From: an uncultured delta proteobacterium
GTDB lineage: Bacteria > Desulfobacterota > Desulfobacteria > Desulfobacterales > SG8-13
Length of the DNA: 64,000 bases
Direction of reading: 5' to 3'
Assembly (NCBI GenBank): GCA_963848135.1
Contig: CAWKCK010000003.1
Location: forward strand, 558,001 to 622,000
Made by a program: the position numbers. Numbering within the stretch: position 1 is the first letter of the stretch; every line of letters begins with the position of its first letter. Positions 6,001 to 12,000 of the stretch are shown here, in pieces.

Positions 6001-9000
6001 TAATTAATTCTGTTACAATCGGAAATCAGCGCAGAACACTGCTCAGCGGGAAAAAGACGATCATTGTGAGAATAGCAATGCAGAGAGCCGATTTCAGTTT
6101 AATGAAACCGGCTCTCGAATATGATCTGGCGGAGAGACAGGGATTCGAACCCTGGAATCAGGTTTCCCCGATTACTCGCTTAGCAGGCGAGCGCCTTCAG
6201 CCGACTCGGCCATCTCTCCGTATTTTAAACAAATAAGCGGGATGGGCTCAATTCCCAGTTTGAGTTACAAATAATCGACGTTTTGAAGAATGCCGGGTCC
6301 ACACGTCGGGCTGTGGACGTTTTGTTTAAACGCATTGCAATGCTGTTGGCGGAGGGAGTAGGATTCGAACCCACGGAGGTGTTACCCTCAACGGTTTTCA
6401 AGACCGCCGCTTTCGACCACTCAGCCATCCCTCCGTGTTTGCAACGAAGATTTTTTTATCACCTCATTGGGTAGGGGTCAATATTTTTTGTTGGTATGGG
6501 GGGCGATACTTCCGGAACCTTATCGGTTATCAGCCCCCACCGGCTGCTGCCAAGGTAAATTCGTCGGTGGATCGTGTGGCCTTTTGGCCATTGACAGATG
6601 CATTTTGGTGTGCTTTTCTTACCTGTTTAAACCGTAACTAAAAAACCGCTATTGAGAGGGACCATTTACATGAAACAAAAATACGAATTCATCAAAGACA
6701 CGGAAAAAGACATTCTAATTTTGCGGGAATATGCAGAGCTGGATAAAGATATCCTGTCACCGCTGTGTGAAGAGCAATACAATATCAAGGCGATTGAAGC
6801 GGCCATGACAGAAGGCAAAGACATGCTCATGGCAGCACTTAGAACCAAAAACATGTATCCACCGGGGCTGTATGCCGAAAAAATTGCCGATGTCGTTACG
6901 GAATTTTTGGGCGCGGCAGACCAGGATACGACCGAACTGCTGTTCGATGATATCGATTTGCTGAAATTGGAGCGAGAGCAAGAAGCCCTTGAATTGGCTG
7001 CCGAAGAAGAGGCGGAGAATATTGACGATTTGCTTTCGGAAGAAGATGATTACGACGGGGATTTCGAATCTGGCGGCGATTTAAAGGGCGTTGGTTCCTT
7101 CAAAGTTGCCGATGATGAATACGGAGATGTGGATGATGATTCTTAATGCTGAATTGAGAATATCGCACGCATAATAGACAGCGAAAGCGTATTAACCTAA
7201 GAATTTCCGTTTGTTTTTAAATTTAAAGAAACCCACCAGGACTGTCGAATTCTGCCACGCCCACGGTGTTCGCTGGCATTCCGCAATAGACAGCGACAGC
7301 GTGACAATATCTTCCATGTTTTTACGGTGACTACGACCACCACTTTAAATTTTGAAGAGATGGGCAGCTATCAACTAAGCGCTGCGCTTGCGTTTTGCTG
7401 ACAGCATACTCCGGCGTGGCGAGATCCAAGGATACTTGCCCCCCTGCCCGCGACGCATGCCCCAAAAGCGCGAATGGCTTCACTCGCACCGAGTTTTGCC
7501 TTGACATCGAGTACTTATTGAAATAAACGGTTGGGCTGACAATGCACTGATCCGGGAAATATTTACCCCCGGTTCACAGCAACTGTGTTTTTCGCCGGAG
7601 GGAACGACCGATGGGGAGAGAAAAGAGCCACTGTTGGCCGCGTGCCGCCAAGTGGTTTTTTTGTATTTATTGCGGTCGATAGAGGCCCGTATCGTACGGG
7701 AGTAAACCGACAGCACTATGTTCGCATCAAGGAGGTGCCGATGGAAAAGGAAAAACAGTTTTATGAGAGGCTGGCGGAGAGGGGTGTAAGCAGGCGGGAT
7801 TTTATGAAATACTGCACCTTCCTCACGGCGACCATGGGGCTGTCGTCTTCATTCGTCCCTAAGGTGGCCGAGGTGTTTGCCGCTCCTAAACAGAGACCCC
7901 CGGTCATCTGGCTGCATTTCGGAGAATGTACCGGATGCTCTGAATCATTGCTGAGATCACAGTATCCTTACATTGATGACCTGGTTTTGGAAATTCTGTC
8001 ACTCGAATATCACGAAACCGTCATGGCGGCAGCCGGCCAGCAGGCGGAAGACCAGCTTCACATGTCGATGAAAAAGCACAATGGGAATTTTATTTGTGTG
8101 GTCGAAGGGGCGATTCCGACCAAATACGACGGAGGTTACGGAAAAATCGGCGGCCGGACCTTCCTGGAAATTGCCAAGGAAGTCTGCCCGAAAGCCGCTG
8201 CCGTAATAGCGATCGGTGCCTGTGCCACTTATGGCGGCATCCCGGCGGCAGCCCCCAATCCCGGCGGATATGTGAGTGTAAGTGAAGCTATCGGTATCAA
8301 GACCATCAACCTTGCCGGATGCCCTCCCAATCCGGTCAACACGGTGGGCACCATCGTGAATTATCTTCTCTTAGGCAAATTACCGGCCATCGATGATCAG
8401 GGACGGCCGCTGTTTGCGTATGGAAAGACCATCCATGACCAGTGCCCCAGACGGTCCCATTTCGAAAACGAAGAATTTGTCGAGGAGTTTGGATCCGAAG
8501 AAGCGGCTATGGGTTACTGCCTATACAAAGTGGGATGCAGAGGTCCGGAAACCTATAACAATTGTCCGGTAGCCAAATTCAATGACGGCACCAGCTGGCC
8601 GATTGAGGCCGGTGCTCCCTGTCTCGGCTGCAGTGAGCCCAAGTTCTGGGATAAGTTCACGCCGTTTTATGAAGAACTGTAGGTTATGGTTTAATCGACT
8701 AACATTTCCTTTTTGAGGTAAAGGGAGGACCAATATGGCTCAGAGAGTAACAATAGATCCAATTACCAGAATCGAAGGCCACCTTCGCATTGAGGTCGAG
8801 GTTTCCGGTGGGAAGGTTGTCAATGCCTGGAGCTCCGGTCAGATGTTCCGTGGCATTGAAATGATTTTACTGGGACGCGATCCCCGCGATGCCCATCATT
8901 TTGTACAGCGTTCCTGCGGAGTCTGAACGTACACCCATGCACTGTCCTCGGTGAGGGCAGCCGAAATGGCCGTTGGCGTCAAAATCCCTGAGAACGCACG

Positions 9001-12000
9001 CATTATCAGAAATCTCTTGATGGGCGCGCAATTCCAGCATGACCATCTCGTTCATTTCTACCATCTGCACGCTCTTGATTGGGTGGACATCGTCAGTGCT
9101 TTAAAAGCCGATCCGGCCAAAACCGCTCAGCTCGCAGACAATGTCAGCAATGCCCAGGTCGGTGGAAGCGCTTATTTCAAACAGGTGCAACAGCGGCTGC
9201 AGACCTTTGTCGACAGTGGTCAGTTGGGCCCCTTTTCGAATGCCTACTGGGGCCATCCGGCTTACAAACTGCCACCGGAAGCCAATTTGATGGCCGCGGC
9301 GCACTACATCGAAGCCCTGCGGTTGCAGGCCAGAACCGCCAGGCTGCATGCCATATTTGGTGCGAAAAATCCCCATTTGCAATCTCTGGTTGTGGGCGGT
9401 GTCACATCCGTGAGAGACTTGAGGGCAGACCGCATTGCTGAATTTCTTTACATCACCAAAGAAACCCAGGAATTCATCAAGAACGTCTATATTCCCGATT
9501 TGCTCGCGGTTGCGTCCTTTTACAAGGATTGGGGTGGCATCGGCGGGACGACCAATTTCCTGGCCTGGGGAGAATTTCCTCTGAGTGATGCTGAGCCCGA
9601 AAGTCTTTACATGCCGCGCGGATACATCAAAAAGAAAGATATAGCCGGCGTCAGCATGCCGTTGCAGGACAATGTCACCGAAGACGTTACCCGCGGCTGG
9701 TATGAAAAGGGCGGTGCAAAGCACCCGTTCCAGGGGGAGACCAAACCGATTCAAAAGGATCCCGAGTACCGTCCCGAAAAAGGCCAGTACACCTGGTTCA
9801 AGGCCCCACGTTATGAAGGCGATCCGGCTGAGGTCGGCCCGCTGACACGTGTTTTGGTGGCCTATGCCAAGGGACACAAGGATATCAAGCCGATAGTCGA
9901 CAAGGTCCTCACGGACCTCGGGATTCCGGCAACGGCATTGTTCTCCACCCTCGGCAGAACGGCAGCAAGAGGGATTGAAACCATCGCCATCGGTGACGCC
10001 ATGCAGGGTTGGGTCATGGAGTTGGTGGAAAATGTCAAGAACGGTGATACCAAGACCTACCAGGCCTGGACCATGCCGGACAAAGGCATGGGCGTCGGGC
10101 TGAACGATGTGCCCAGGGGTTCTTTGGGCCACTGGATGGAAATCGAGGGTGGGAAGATAAAGAACTATCAGTATGTGGTCCCATCCACTTGGAATCTAGG
10201 TCCCAGGGATGCCAAAGGCAAACTGGGTCCTGTGGAGGAAGCACTCATCGGAACCCCGATAGCTGATCCGAAAAAACCGCTCGAGGTCCTCAGAACGGTG
10301 CACTCTTTCGATCCGTGCATTGCCTGCGGTGTGCACGTTATCGATCCCGATTCGAACGAGGTTTATAAAATTAAAGTTCTCTAACTGTCATTGATGCTCG
10401 TCAGCCTGGCCTCTCAAGGACTGACGAGCATCTCTCCACCAGCTCCCCAAGCCGAGCGGCAAGAAAGGCCTTCGGGTGTTGTGTTCTTGCCGATTCACCA
10501 AGCCGGAATGCTCCCTTTGCCAAGTTAAGATCTTGCTTTGCCGACAACCCGGTGCGCTATAATGGCGGAGCGGCGGGGCTCAGTGAAAACAATGAGCAAC
10601 CCATCCAATCAAATAATGATACTCGGTGTCGGGTGCATCCTTTACTCCGACGAGGGGTTCGGCGTCCGTGTCGTACAGGAAATGCAAAGGAGATATGCGT
10701 TTCCCGAAAATGTCTCCTTGGTTGACGGCGGCGTTTTGGGTGTCAACCTCTTGGGCGTGATATCTCAACCGGATAACCTGATCGTTGTGGATGTTATTCG
10801 CAACAAAGGCAACCCTGGGGATATCTATCGACTTGAAGGTGAACAGATACCCGAACGGATACGAGCCAAAAACTCCCTCCATCAGGTTGACTTTCTTGAA
10901 GCGCTGACCTTGTGCCAGGCTCTGGACAAGGTTCCCGAAACCGTAATAATCGGCGTAGAACCGAAAGATATCGAAACCCTCAGTATCGCGCTGACACCGA
11001 CAACTCAGTCACGAATGGAGGATGTCGTCACAATGGTTCTATCCGAACTGGATCGCCTGGGGATTCCCTATACGGAAGGAAATTCGGAAGATGTGCCTCG
11101 CTATCCCATCTAAAATCATCAACATCAAGGACGGTATGGGTACCATTGATGTTGACGGAGTCAGAAGGTCTTGCAGTCTATTGCTACTCGAAGATCCCAA
11201 AGTGGGCGACTGGGTCATTGTTCATGCCGGTTTCGCGCTACATAAAATCGACGAGATTGCGGCAATGGAATCTCTATCGATTCTGAAAGAAGCAGCGGCC
11301 CTTGCCGAAGGGAAAAAACACCCCGATTCGAAATGAAATCAGGCGAAGGCGTTGGTGTTTTTGAATAGTATTAAACCAACGCCCATGAGCACGGGCATCT
11401 CGCAATAAATTAAAGGGTAATTGCATGAAAGCTCTGCCTGGGGCGGAAGGGGCGACCAGCGGTGAAAGCGGGCACCTGTTTGAATGCATTCGGCAGCGCT
11501 TAAGAAAAGCGCCAACTGAAGCACTTACATATAACAACCGACCAAGCCAGCCCCTAACCTTCTGATTAAATTTTGGTACCCTGTTCTCTGACACATCCTT
11601 ATATGAGATTACGCGCCGCAGTCACTGATGATCATCCCTTCCACGCCAAATGCCACAAAACTGCCCCGAGGATTCAAATAATCCGCCATGGAACATGTTG
11701 CCGCCAGGATTGTGGTTAACGGTATAGTGCAAGGTGTCGGATTCCGTCCGTTCGTTTTCAACCTGGCCAATCGTCACGGCCTCACCGGAGAGGTTGCCAA
11801 CACCTCCTCGGGAGTGGTGATCCTGATCGAAGGTGCTGCCGATCACATCAATGCATTTGCGACAGATCTTACTGCCAAGCCACCTCCTTTGGCGCATATT
11901 GTCGACGTTTCCCGGCGGGCGGTTGCCGTGACCGGTTATTCGGCATTCACAATCATCGAGAGCAGGGGTGATGAGGTGATGTCCACCCTCATATCTCCGG

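Follow-up and report, generated by a model that had tools for sequence, protein, structure and literature searches.

Results

The hydrogenase locus

The window, a stretch of 64,000 nucleotides from the genome of an uncultured delta proteobacterium of the Desulfobacterales, carries on its forward strand an operon for a [NiFe] hydrogenase and its maturation. The small subunit gene hynB (7741..8682; Pfam Oxidored_q6, PF01058, and NiFe_hyd_SSU_C, PF14720) precedes the large subunit gene hynA (8735..10384; PF00374 over the full length, 1e-214). Downstream lie hynC, for a maturation endopeptidase of the HycI family (10592..11113; PF01750, 3.3e-33), hypC, whose product starts MCLAIP (11097..11336; PF01455, 8.5e-23), hypF (11688..13990), hypD (14049..15140; PF01924, 1.5e-148) and hypE (15278..16414; AIRS and AIRS_C), all on the forward strand. 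The survey's finding had described an operon with the small subunit, the HynC protease and HypC, HypF, HypD and HypE downstream, and every one of these genes was located with Pfam support. The hypF gene lies in two frames (11688-13355 and 13250-13990), its Pfam domains being divided between the two ORFs, and the frame changes at a run of six G (13240-13245). If this frameshift were real, no [NiFe] hydrogenase would be able to mature. The window also includes sat on the reverse strand (1865-3196).

The frame of hynA has a single interruption, a TGA at codon 64 (8924..8926, forward strand; contig C3:566924-566926) that we read as selenocysteine (Sec). The split at this codon was thus confirmed. 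Of the two pieces reported by the survey, the 63-aa ORF is there (8735-8926), whereas the downstream one (8951-10384) is 477 aa long from its first GTG and would reach the reported 472 aa only from a later start. Translation through the TGA gives, exactly as announced, 549 aa with the N-terminal motif RSCGVUTYTH and the C-terminal motif DPCIACGVH. This product covers positions 1-508 of the 508 of the PF00374 profile and ends in a 15-residue C-terminal extension after His534. The TGA takes the place of the second Cys in the N-terminal nickel motif RxCGxCxxxH, which is the bridging one according to Takano 2026 (PMC13582414). HynA is about 65% identical to the solved enzymes of D. fructosovorans, D. 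gigas and D. vulgaris MF. In an ungapped alignment with the D. gigas large subunit (2frv_L), U64 corresponds to Cys68, C528 to Cys530 and C531 to Cys533, which bears out the description of a CXXU protein in which Sec occupies the site of the bridging N-terminal Cys and the C-terminal motif is all-Cys. A mark of the classical [NiFeSe] type is Ser in place of the canopy Asp. In HynA, Asp103 lies in QHDHLVHF, as in 1frf and 2frv, and by a numbering offset of +15 it may correspond to D118 of Hyd-1 (Evans et al. 2021, PMC8020662).

Relatives of the two subunits

The best matches of both subunits are the HynAB enzymes of D. fructosovorans, D. gigas and D. vulgaris Miyazaki F (1frf, 2frv, 1h2a). For the large subunit these matches range from 6.7e-211 to 1.7e-207 (1frf_L, 6.7e-211; 2frv_L, 2.7e-208), whereas the large subunits of the classical [NiFeSe] enzymes are far more distant (7e-99 to 1.7e-94) and matched in two stretches. 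For the small subunit the best match is 1h2a_S (2e-116), the [NiFeSe] small subunits scoring 3e-62 to about 1e-60. The likeness to Desulfovibrio HynAB extends to length, to both the L1 and L2 motifs, to the Tat signal, to the C-terminal extension and to the Pro in the region of the medial cluster. Translated HynB has the twin-arginine signal RRDFMK and lacks a C-terminal membrane anchor. The assignment to a group 1b-type is suggested by these nearest solved relatives. Yet, these HynAB enzymes, which are selenium-free, have Cys where hynA has the Sec codon for U64.

Classical [NiFeSe] hydrogenases, among them those of Desulfomicrobium baculatum (1cc1) and D. vulgaris Hildenborough (HysAB, 2wpn), share with HynAB a periplasmic location, membership of group 1, occurrence in sulfate reducers and one UGA-decoded Sec among the four nickel ligands. 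But their Sec takes the place of the terminal Cys, the first one in the C-terminal motif, and here it replaces the second Cys in the N-terminal motif. HynA lacks the DPUxxC motif of HysAB, and so do its orthologues: DPC..C..H stands in each of the 149 loci that extend as far as the C-terminal motif. The small subunits of [NiFeSe] enzymes carry Cys instead of Pro at the medial cluster. HynB retains the Pro (within ...TSWPIEAGAPCLGC...), as do standard [NiFe] enzymes, its W-P standing opposite the W-P of 1h2a_S, and the fourth medial-cluster Cys of the HysAB type is absent from it.

We searched the whole 6.03-Mb genome with PF00374 and found two loci only. One is hynA; the other encodes a cytoplasmic-type enzyme of 433 aa, with no Tat signal on its small subunit. 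The product of hynA is thus the only periplasmic uptake [NiFe] hydrogenase, as the survey had proposed. It was also right that the paralogous large subunit (22046-23347) has Cys at the U column (RICGLCSVAH...DPCLSCATH).

An RNA hairpin downstream of the TGA

A SECIS-type hairpin, CTGTCCTC-GGT-GAGGGCAG, starts 15 nt past the TGA (8942..8960, forward strand) and has an 8-bp stem and a GGU apical loop. The fold of 8936-8966 has -11.7 kcal/mol (z -2.23), and 5 of 200 shuffled sequences were equally stable. A wider fold of 62 nt (8924-8985) has -18.9 kcal/mol, which is not unusual (z of only -0.87) and was therefore not used as evidence for a SECIS. The survey's hairpin is hence present, but neither energy equals the -13.9 that it gave.

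The hairpin is nearly invariant in all 107 parsed Sec-type genes, and RNAalifold recovered it from 103 distinct Sec-type sequences (-11.28); nothing comparable emerged from the 42 Cys-type sequences. Given the consensus residue, the codon entropy of Sec-type genes at codons 70-76 is 0.18 bits, which ranks 2nd among 543 windows (n=107), next to a gene mean of 1.24 and a minimum of 0.11 bits in window 71-77. The same codons in Cys-type genes have 1.69 bits and rank 535th of 543 (n=42). The codon of Arg74 is AGG in every Sec-type gene. One stem pair switches from U-G to G-U in three Sec-type orthologues (L059, L062 and L068); because the stem is near-invariant, true covariation is limited to this pair. 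It is mainly suppressed synonymous change that makes the case for an RNA element. We rejected pairing in the lower stem as the cause of the invariant A at nucleotide +10, a base that RNAalifold leaves unpaired.

Selenocysteine machinery and metatranscriptome contigs

The genome encodes selA (622 bits), selB (374 bits), selD and one tRNA-Sec (76.5 bits) with anticodon TCA according to ARAGORN. The selD gene itself contains one TGA. Contigs from four metatranscriptome runs of three studies span the TGA of hynA (e.g. X18 record 21, 8822-9084), and the differences listed for them include none at the TGA, although such contigs come from relatives and may include DNA. Their depth was discarded as a measure of expression, given the many relatives, the possible DNA and some bins without cover.

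Distribution among Desulfobacterales

Among the 150 best orthologue loci, each from a different species, the U64 column holds TGA in 108 and TGC or TGT in 42. The recurrence of TGA in this column shows that the feature is not due to chance. Among loci of named records, TGA occurs in 71 of the 78 that contain the motif (80 were fetched). The survey had counted RSCGV-TGA-T in 27 of the 30 best loci; in our larger draw the count is 29 of 30.

To estimate prevalence we used 281 species drawn evenly from the order. An orthologue is present in 142 of them (75 Sec-type, 66 Cys-type and one undetermined). The Sec-type is thus the majority form across Desulfobacterales, as the survey had it, only in the narrow sense of species with an orthologue (53%), for it accounts for 27% of the whole sample. 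Matches below about 73% identity in this sample are all Cys-type. Cys-type genes make up the basal lineages and Sec-type genes a derived crown with at least 14 switches between Sec and Cys. We found selA to be near-universal (267 of the 281 genomes). By a hand cross-tabulation it is present in 64 of the 66 Cys-type genomes and in 70 of the 75 Sec-type ones. On these counts we rejected the idea that Cys-type genes stem from a lost Sec trait. The absence of selA from the other five Sec-type genomes (G036, G149, G158, G228 and G268; completeness 61-97%) probably reflects gaps in the assemblies.

Discussion

Reading of UGA64

We showed that an in-frame TGA occupies a nickel-ligand position in hynA and in most of its closest orthologues. 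We consider it very likely that the locus encodes a soluble, Tat-exported, HynAB-like (group 1b-type) uptake [NiFe] hydrogenase in which UGA64 is recoded to Sec by means of the hairpin, with selenium bridging Ni and Fe. What we observed directly is the codon and how it is conserved, along with the RNA element, the genes of the Sec machinery and the homology. The decoding of UGA64 as Sec is well supported by such genomic evidence.

Other readings of the codon must be weighed. UGA64 might be read as Cys, or as another standard residue, by a tRNA-ReC or an allo-tRNA(UCA), and the mature enzyme would then be an ordinary all-Cys [NiFe] hydrogenase. This caveat was raised by Takano 2026 (PMC13582414) for CXXU and UXXU hydrogenases of genomes that carry selC*, and insertion of Sec and of Cys is indistinguishable from sequence alone. 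Yet, of the 51 tRNAs that ARAGORN found in the whole genome a single one has a UCA anticodon and is typed tRNA-SeC, with the proviso that the program may overlook unusual allo-tRNAs decoding UGA as Cys. The genome also has only one match to RF01852 above the gathering score. Two sub-threshold matches to the tRNA-Sec model in the window raised the possibility of an allo-tRNA beside the operon, which was rejected because both are normal serine tRNAs (tRNA-Ser; anticodons GCT and TGA). The conservation of the hairpin at synonymous sites, limited to TGA-type genes, fits decoding that depends on SelB. We therefore regard the reading as Cys as improbable.

It is harder still to see in the TGA a genuine stop that leaves hynA split, or a pseudogene, in pieces of 63 and 477 aa. 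Gene callers do split it, and a GTG at 8951 lies 25 nt downstream of the TGA. But orthologues of 108 of 150 species share the TGA in the same column and have no other stop, with protein identity of 75-96% on both sides, and a split would sever the CxxC nickel motif in the sole periplasmic [NiFe] hydrogenase of a genome that keeps a full maturation operon for it. Least plausible of all, to the point of being hardly worth entertaining, is an error of sequencing or assembly for TGC or TGT. The apparent homopolymer frameshift of hypF suggests that this same assembly may err. Yet, the TGA lies outside any homopolymer, it recurs in the independent assemblies of the 108 genomes and 71 named-record loci counted above, and the hairpin accompanies it every time.

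A putative enzyme with selenium between nickel and iron

With UGA64 read as Sec, SelB with Sec-tRNA(Sec) would bring Sec to the UGA (8924-8926) by binding the mRNA hairpin (8942-8960). U64 corresponds to D. gigas Cys68, and its selenium would bridge Ni and Fe where the D. gigas enzyme has sulfur; C61, C528 and C531 would complete the nickel site as cysteine ligands. Maturation would depend on HypCDEF and on the HynC protease encoded downstream, the latter removing the C-terminal extension of HynA. The enzyme would oxidize H2 in the periplasm, and electrons would leave through the three Fe-S clusters of the small subunit toward the sulfate-reduction chain. From the genome we infer the insertion of selenium, its place between Ni and Fe and an effect on catalysis.

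An engineered enzyme provides a point of comparison. The C79U variant of E. coli Hyd-1 has Sec at the same ligand position as U64, the second Cys of the N-terminal CxxC. It retained 13% of native activity, the most among four Sec variants (Evans et al. 2021, PMC8020662), and showed a lower Km for H2 and near inactivity at 10% O2 (PMC8020662). Yet, Hyd-1 C79U is man-made, obtained by UAG suppression from an enzyme of group 1d that tolerates O2 (PMC8020662). By analogy, HynA should retain activity; its Km for H2 should be lower, and its tolerance of O2 should not be increased. Unlike Hyd-1 C79U, natural CXXU enzymes may carry co-adapted residues.

Prior reports and implications

Work on [NiFeSe] enzymes and recent reviews place natural Sec at the terminal cysteine of the C-terminal motif. 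The survey rightly noted that CXXU hydrogenases are already in print for a few sequences. Takano 2026 (PMC13582414) reports 27 CXXU sequences of group 4 and cites Baltazar 2011 for two of group 1 and one of group 3; Zhang and Gladyshev 2007 (PMC1976440) describe a CxxU 'FrhA' in Olavius symbionts. The named record of Olavius Delta 1 (L185) carries this same form of hynA. Both papers present CXXU as an exception in group 1, whereas here 75 of 281 sampled species have it. In the literature searched we found no evidence at the protein level, be it 75Se labelling, mass spectrometry, structure or activity, on any natural group-1 CXXU enzyme. That literature does not seem to report how prevalent this form is, its one shared SECIS or its recurrent reversions, though the supplements of Takano 2026 and Evans 2021 may list group-1 CXXU sequences.

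One might speculate further on the history of this enzyme. In much of the Desulfobacterales, and in some genomes from another order, the main periplasmic H2-uptake enzyme may be a hydrogenase with selenium bridging Ni and Fe, which would then be no curiosity. On one or a few occasions it would have evolved from a Cys-type ancestor, its one SECIS being frozen ever since. Lineages that retain the Sec machinery would have gone back to Cys at least ten times, and residue 67 would have changed on every such occasion (Thr/Ile to Val; A to G at nucleotide +10). We hold this scenario to be tentative, and it may well prove wrong in part or in whole.

The gene is routinely split by gene callers, and a simple annotation rule would recover it: RSCGV-TGA-T followed by the CTGTCCTCGGTGAGGGCAG hairpin. 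It offers a natural and widespread counterpart of Hyd-1 C79U for asking what selenium does in the Ni-Fe bridge. The recurrent switches between Sec and Cys in spite of a retained selA amount to a natural experiment on when selenium pays. If the proposed history is true, bridging selenium would give a catalytic advantage that depends on conditions, e.g. affinity for trace H2, and that needs adaptation of the second shell or of the mRNA context. The turnover of H2 in sulfidic sediments would then be partly dependent on selenium.

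A probable selenocysteine codon at the predicted bridging ligand of HynA

The reading frame of hynA (8735-10384, forward strand) has a single interruption, a TGA at 8924-8926. The ATG at 8735 is preceded by a good ribosome-binding site (GGGAGG). With the TGA read as selenocysteine (Sec, U), the frame encodes 549 residues, including R-S-C-G-V-U-T-Y-T-H at 59-68 and an all-cysteine D-P-C-I-A-C-G-V-H at 526-534, and the survey's finding that the split gene is one read-through gene is thus upheld. Residues 39-534 match the whole 508-position profile of the Pfam family NiFeSe_Hases (1e-214). 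Among solved proteins, periplasmic [NiFe] hydrogenases score best: 1frf_L of D. fructosovorans at 6.7e-211, 2frv_L of D. gigas at 2.7e-208 and 1h2a_L of D. vulgaris Miyazaki F at 1.7e-207. The classical [NiFeSe] enzymes match much more weakly (7e-99 to 1.7e-94) and in two separate stretches. The alignment with 2frv is ungapped from query residue 3 (chain residue 7) up to the motif, and U64 is therefore equivalent to D. gigas Cys68; in the same alignment C61, C528 and C531 correspond to Cys65, Cys530 and Cys533. In this N-terminal motif, according to Takano et al. (2026, PMC13582414), the second cysteine bridges Ni and Fe and the first binds Ni only. The TGA-containing feature is real, and hynA is almost certainly a selenoprotein gene with a predicted Sec in place of a bridging cysteine (CXXU).

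The genome carries the machinery for Sec insertion: a tRNA-Sec (RF01852, 76.5 bits; tRNA-SeC with anticodon TCA in ARAGORN), selA (622 bits), selB (374 bits, above the cut-off) and selD (372 bits), which itself contains one TGA. Among the 51 tRNAs that ARAGORN reports over all contigs, only tRNA-SeC has the anticodon UCA. Two weak matches to the tRNA-Sec model near the operon are ordinary tRNA-Ser. Outside the window, besides the full selB on contig C4, there is a second selB-like gene (G000:C15:43659-45516) matched in two adjoining pieces, profile positions 13-105 and 106-580, which abut at 45233/45235.

Genomic context

The gene upstream of hynA (7741-8682) encodes the small subunit, which carries a twin-arginine signal, is closest to 1h2a_S among solved proteins (2e-116) and, like standard [NiFe] enzymes, keeps W-P in the medial-cluster region. 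Downstream of hynA lie genes for a HycI-type endopeptidase, HypC, HypF, HypD and HypE. The hypF gene (11688-13990) switches frame at a run of six G (13240-13245), where the expected reading ...IWGGE... would take seven. This is probably a homopolymer error in the assembly; if real, it would block the maturation of both [NiFe] hydrogenases. An ATP sulfurylase gene lies at 1865-3196 on the reverse strand. Directly after the hyp genes, a 1057-aa protein (16794-19967) combines an MMPL/sterol-sensing-type transporter with cyclic-nucleotide-binding and GGDEF domains, and the next gene (20165-21124) encodes a protein with two cNMP-binding domains.

In the whole 6.03-Mb genome (98.65% complete), PF00374 matches the hynA locus and a 433-aa enzyme at 22046-23347 (RICGLCSVAH...DPCLSCATH), with no others. 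The small subunit of the 433-aa enzyme lacks a signal and has its Fe-S domain right from the start. The hynA enzyme is therefore the only periplasmic [NiFe] hydrogenase found, as the survey had claimed for periplasmic uptake enzymes.

Frequency of the Sec form in the order

When 401 species genomes of the order were searched with the protein, 249 gave a match at E <= 1e-100. Sequence-level comparison of the best 150 of these 249 (75-100% identity) showed TGA at the U column, the codon of U64, in 108, TGC in 34 and TGT in 8. We parsed 149 of the 150 loci together and inspected the truncated L116 separately; among these best 150 of 249, the C-terminal motif has cysteine at both positions in all 149 loci that reach it. 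Since such a list is skewed towards the Sec-type query, we searched again an even draw of 281 genomes, listing every match at E <= 1e-200. An orthologue occurs in 142 of the 281, in 143 rows which, counted by hand, contain one TGA (75), no stop (67) or one TAA (1). At the sequence level all 75 TGA rows have the TGA at the U column together with the hairpin described below. The stop-free rows include a partial gene without the U column (G123) and, in a genome with a Sec-type gene as well (G259), a second copy at 57% identity; in the TAA row (G266) the U column holds TGT. Per genome, 75 are Sec-type, 66 Cys-type and one lacks the column. The Sec form is thus indeed, though narrowly, the majority form of this enzyme across Desulfobacterales: it accounts for 53% of the genomes with an orthologue, or 27% of the 281 drawn. 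In the even draw, every match under about 73% identity is Cys-type.

The 149 parsed loci cover 41 family codes, and 30 of these include Sec-type genes. Named records show a similar pattern, with 71 TGA, 7 Cys and 2 partial among 80 loci. The TGA records include MAGs labelled Desulfobacterales, Desulfobacteraceae, Desulfosarcinaceae or Syntrophobacterales, plus an Olavius Delta 1 symbiont record. The Cys-type ones include a Desulfatibacillum MAG and Desulfosarcina alkanivorans PL12, the only cultured genome among those seen; no cultured Sec-type isolate was found among the 80 named-record loci. One Sec-type gene (L164, genome G623) has a second in-frame TGA where other orthologues have Trp (..NAY-U-GHPAY..); this could reflect an error, decay to a pseudogene or another site of recoding.

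A hairpin conserved only with the TGA

Fifteen nucleotides past the TGA starts a hairpin, CTGTCCTC-GGT-GAGGGCAG (8942-8960), with an 8-bp stem and a GGU loop. Its fold of -11.7 kcal/mol has a z of -2.23, with 5 of 200 shuffles equally stable; over a 62-nt stretch the fold is unremarkable (z -0.87). Among the best 150 of 249 matches, nucleotides +19 to +37 (counted from the T of TGA) are almost invariant in all 107 parsed Sec-type genes, and positions 23-28, 30-33 and 35 show no change at all. In these genes the codon entropy given the consensus residue is 0.18 bits at codons 70-76 (rank 2 of 543 seven-codon windows) and 0.11 bits at 71-77, the gene minimum, against a gene mean of 1.24; in the 42 Cys-type genes codons 70-76 have 1.69 bits (rank 535 of 543; gene mean 1.16). 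RNAalifold recovers the hairpin from 103 distinct Sec-type sequences and nothing comparable from the Cys-type set. The stem varies little: at one pair most genes have U-G, three (L059, L062, L068) have G-U and a few are mismatched, and four genes have a GGC loop. The case for a functional RNA element thus comes mainly from synonymous sites frozen solely where the TGA is present, the pattern expected of a SECIS. Several Cys-type loci, L129, L111 and L256 among them, keep most of the hairpin sequence, L129 differing at 1 of 19 bases. They resemble genes that converted from Sec to Cys recently and whose SECIS is decaying.

Contigs at least 85% alike from four metatranscriptome runs (three studies) cover hynA and bridge the TGA, for example at 8822-9084, 8855-9084, 8824-8964 and 8755-8940. 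In runs X16, X17 and X18, summed depth peaks in the bin 8898-8986, which spans the TGA and the hairpin, at several times the level of its neighbours; in X19 this bin comes close to the top. Such a pattern is consistent with many organisms having these frozen nucleotides in common. Transcript support for hynA across the TGA is weak: the contigs come from relatives, DNA may be present in the libraries, and the sequence differences examined are the smaller part of those recorded.

Switching between Sec and Cys

A tree of 149 proteins without outgroup (FastTree, then IQ-TREE quick with LG+G4, residues 60-80 removed) requires at least 14 Sec/Cys changes. An outgroup tree of 189 rows added 32 sequences of the order, six from other orders and two outgroups, the 50-54% identical relatives that form the root, and excluded the partial genes L116 and L280-L283. 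Its seven most basal branches are Cys-type, the exception being an out-of-order gene (L168) beside one of them with support 22, and its derived crown is filled by Sec-type genes. Equal-cost parsimony gives the ingroup a Cys root, 5 gains and 10 losses; with gains at three times the cost of losses, the result is 2 gains against 16 losses. These figures are approximate, since several deep nodes are weakly supported (13-36). Because one hairpin sequence is common to all Sec-type genes, we favour few gains of Sec and many reversions to Cys. Loss of the Sec trait does not account for reversion: selA is present in 267 of the 281 genomes (202 of the 205 high-quality ones) and, in our cross-tabulation, in 64 of the 66 genomes of Cys type and 70 of the 75 of Sec type.

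The switch is coupled to residue 67 (codon 8933-8935), three positions past U/C64. All 107 Sec-type genes have Thr or Ile here and none has Val, the residue found in 29 of the 42 Cys-type genes. In 11 independent, well-supported pairs of rows differing in Sec/Cys, Val accompanies Cys in about 8.6 and runs the opposite way in 0, with no change in 2.4 (sign test, median p 0.004). Nucleotide +10, predicted unpaired, is A throughout the Sec-type genes (107 of 107) and G in 29 of the 42 Cys-type ones. The coupling may reflect a requirement of Sec insertion for a certain mRNA context, or an adaptation of the second shell to a bridging atom of greater size.

CXXU beyond the order

We searched R-x-C-G-[V/I/L/M/F]-TGA-T-x-x-H in 401 genomes of the phylum, of which 387 belong to other orders. 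It matched in 16 genomes, and a reversed control pattern in one. Two of the 16 are inside the order (the window's own genome and G023). Among the 14 others, four matches are chance, in non-hydrogenase frames. Six are the same orthologue with the same hairpin, five in family f120 and one in f159; the complete genes are 74-78% identical, and that of G772 is partial. The remaining four (L155 and L156 in f98, L166 and L167 in f126) encode another group-1 large subunit, at about 50-54% identity. They have RICGVUTTVH or RFCGVUTTVH, with the TGA at the U column, and each has its own downstream hairpin. CXXU therefore occurs in more than one group-1 lineage. The C-terminal DPC..C..H is all-Cys in L155, L166 and L167; L156 stops before it. 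In L156 a polytopic membrane protein gene lies directly upstream of the large subunit.

Relation to earlier work

That this kind was already in print, as the survey had allowed, is borne out by the new CxxU Sec position reported in a hydrogenase alpha subunit of Olavius symbionts (Zhang and Gladyshev 2007, PMC1976440). The CXXU hydrogenase is a known kind, and hynA a further example. Takano et al. (2026, PMC13582414) place Sec of groups 1 and 3 predominantly in C-terminal UXXC, the hydrogenase alpha subunit entry of a 2026 review of prokaryotic selenoproteomes has UxxC alone, and the accounts of Desulfobacteraceae in Tamura (2016) and Strittmatter (2009) describe classical HysAB alone. Evans et al. 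(2021, PMC8020662) mention 'purported examples' of a substituted bridging cysteine, named C579. Baltazar 2011 is cited in two ways, for exceptional natural Sec in an N-terminal CXXU (Takano 2026) and for the C-terminal bridging cysteine C579 (Evans 2021); the sequences here agree with the former. Evans et al. (2021, PMC8020662) also report that engineered Hyd-1 C79U kept 13% of native H2-oxidation activity, the most of four variants. Its Km for H2 was lowered and its activation enthalpy raised by about 10 kJ/mol, and O2 tolerance did not improve. Our full-text search, Baltazar 2011 and supplements aside, found no report of the frequency of group-1 CXXU, of a shared SECIS or of reversions. What this analysis adds is that the kind is common, that it has a single conserved decoding element, and that it appears to have reverted to Cys many times, with a neighbouring residue changing alongside.
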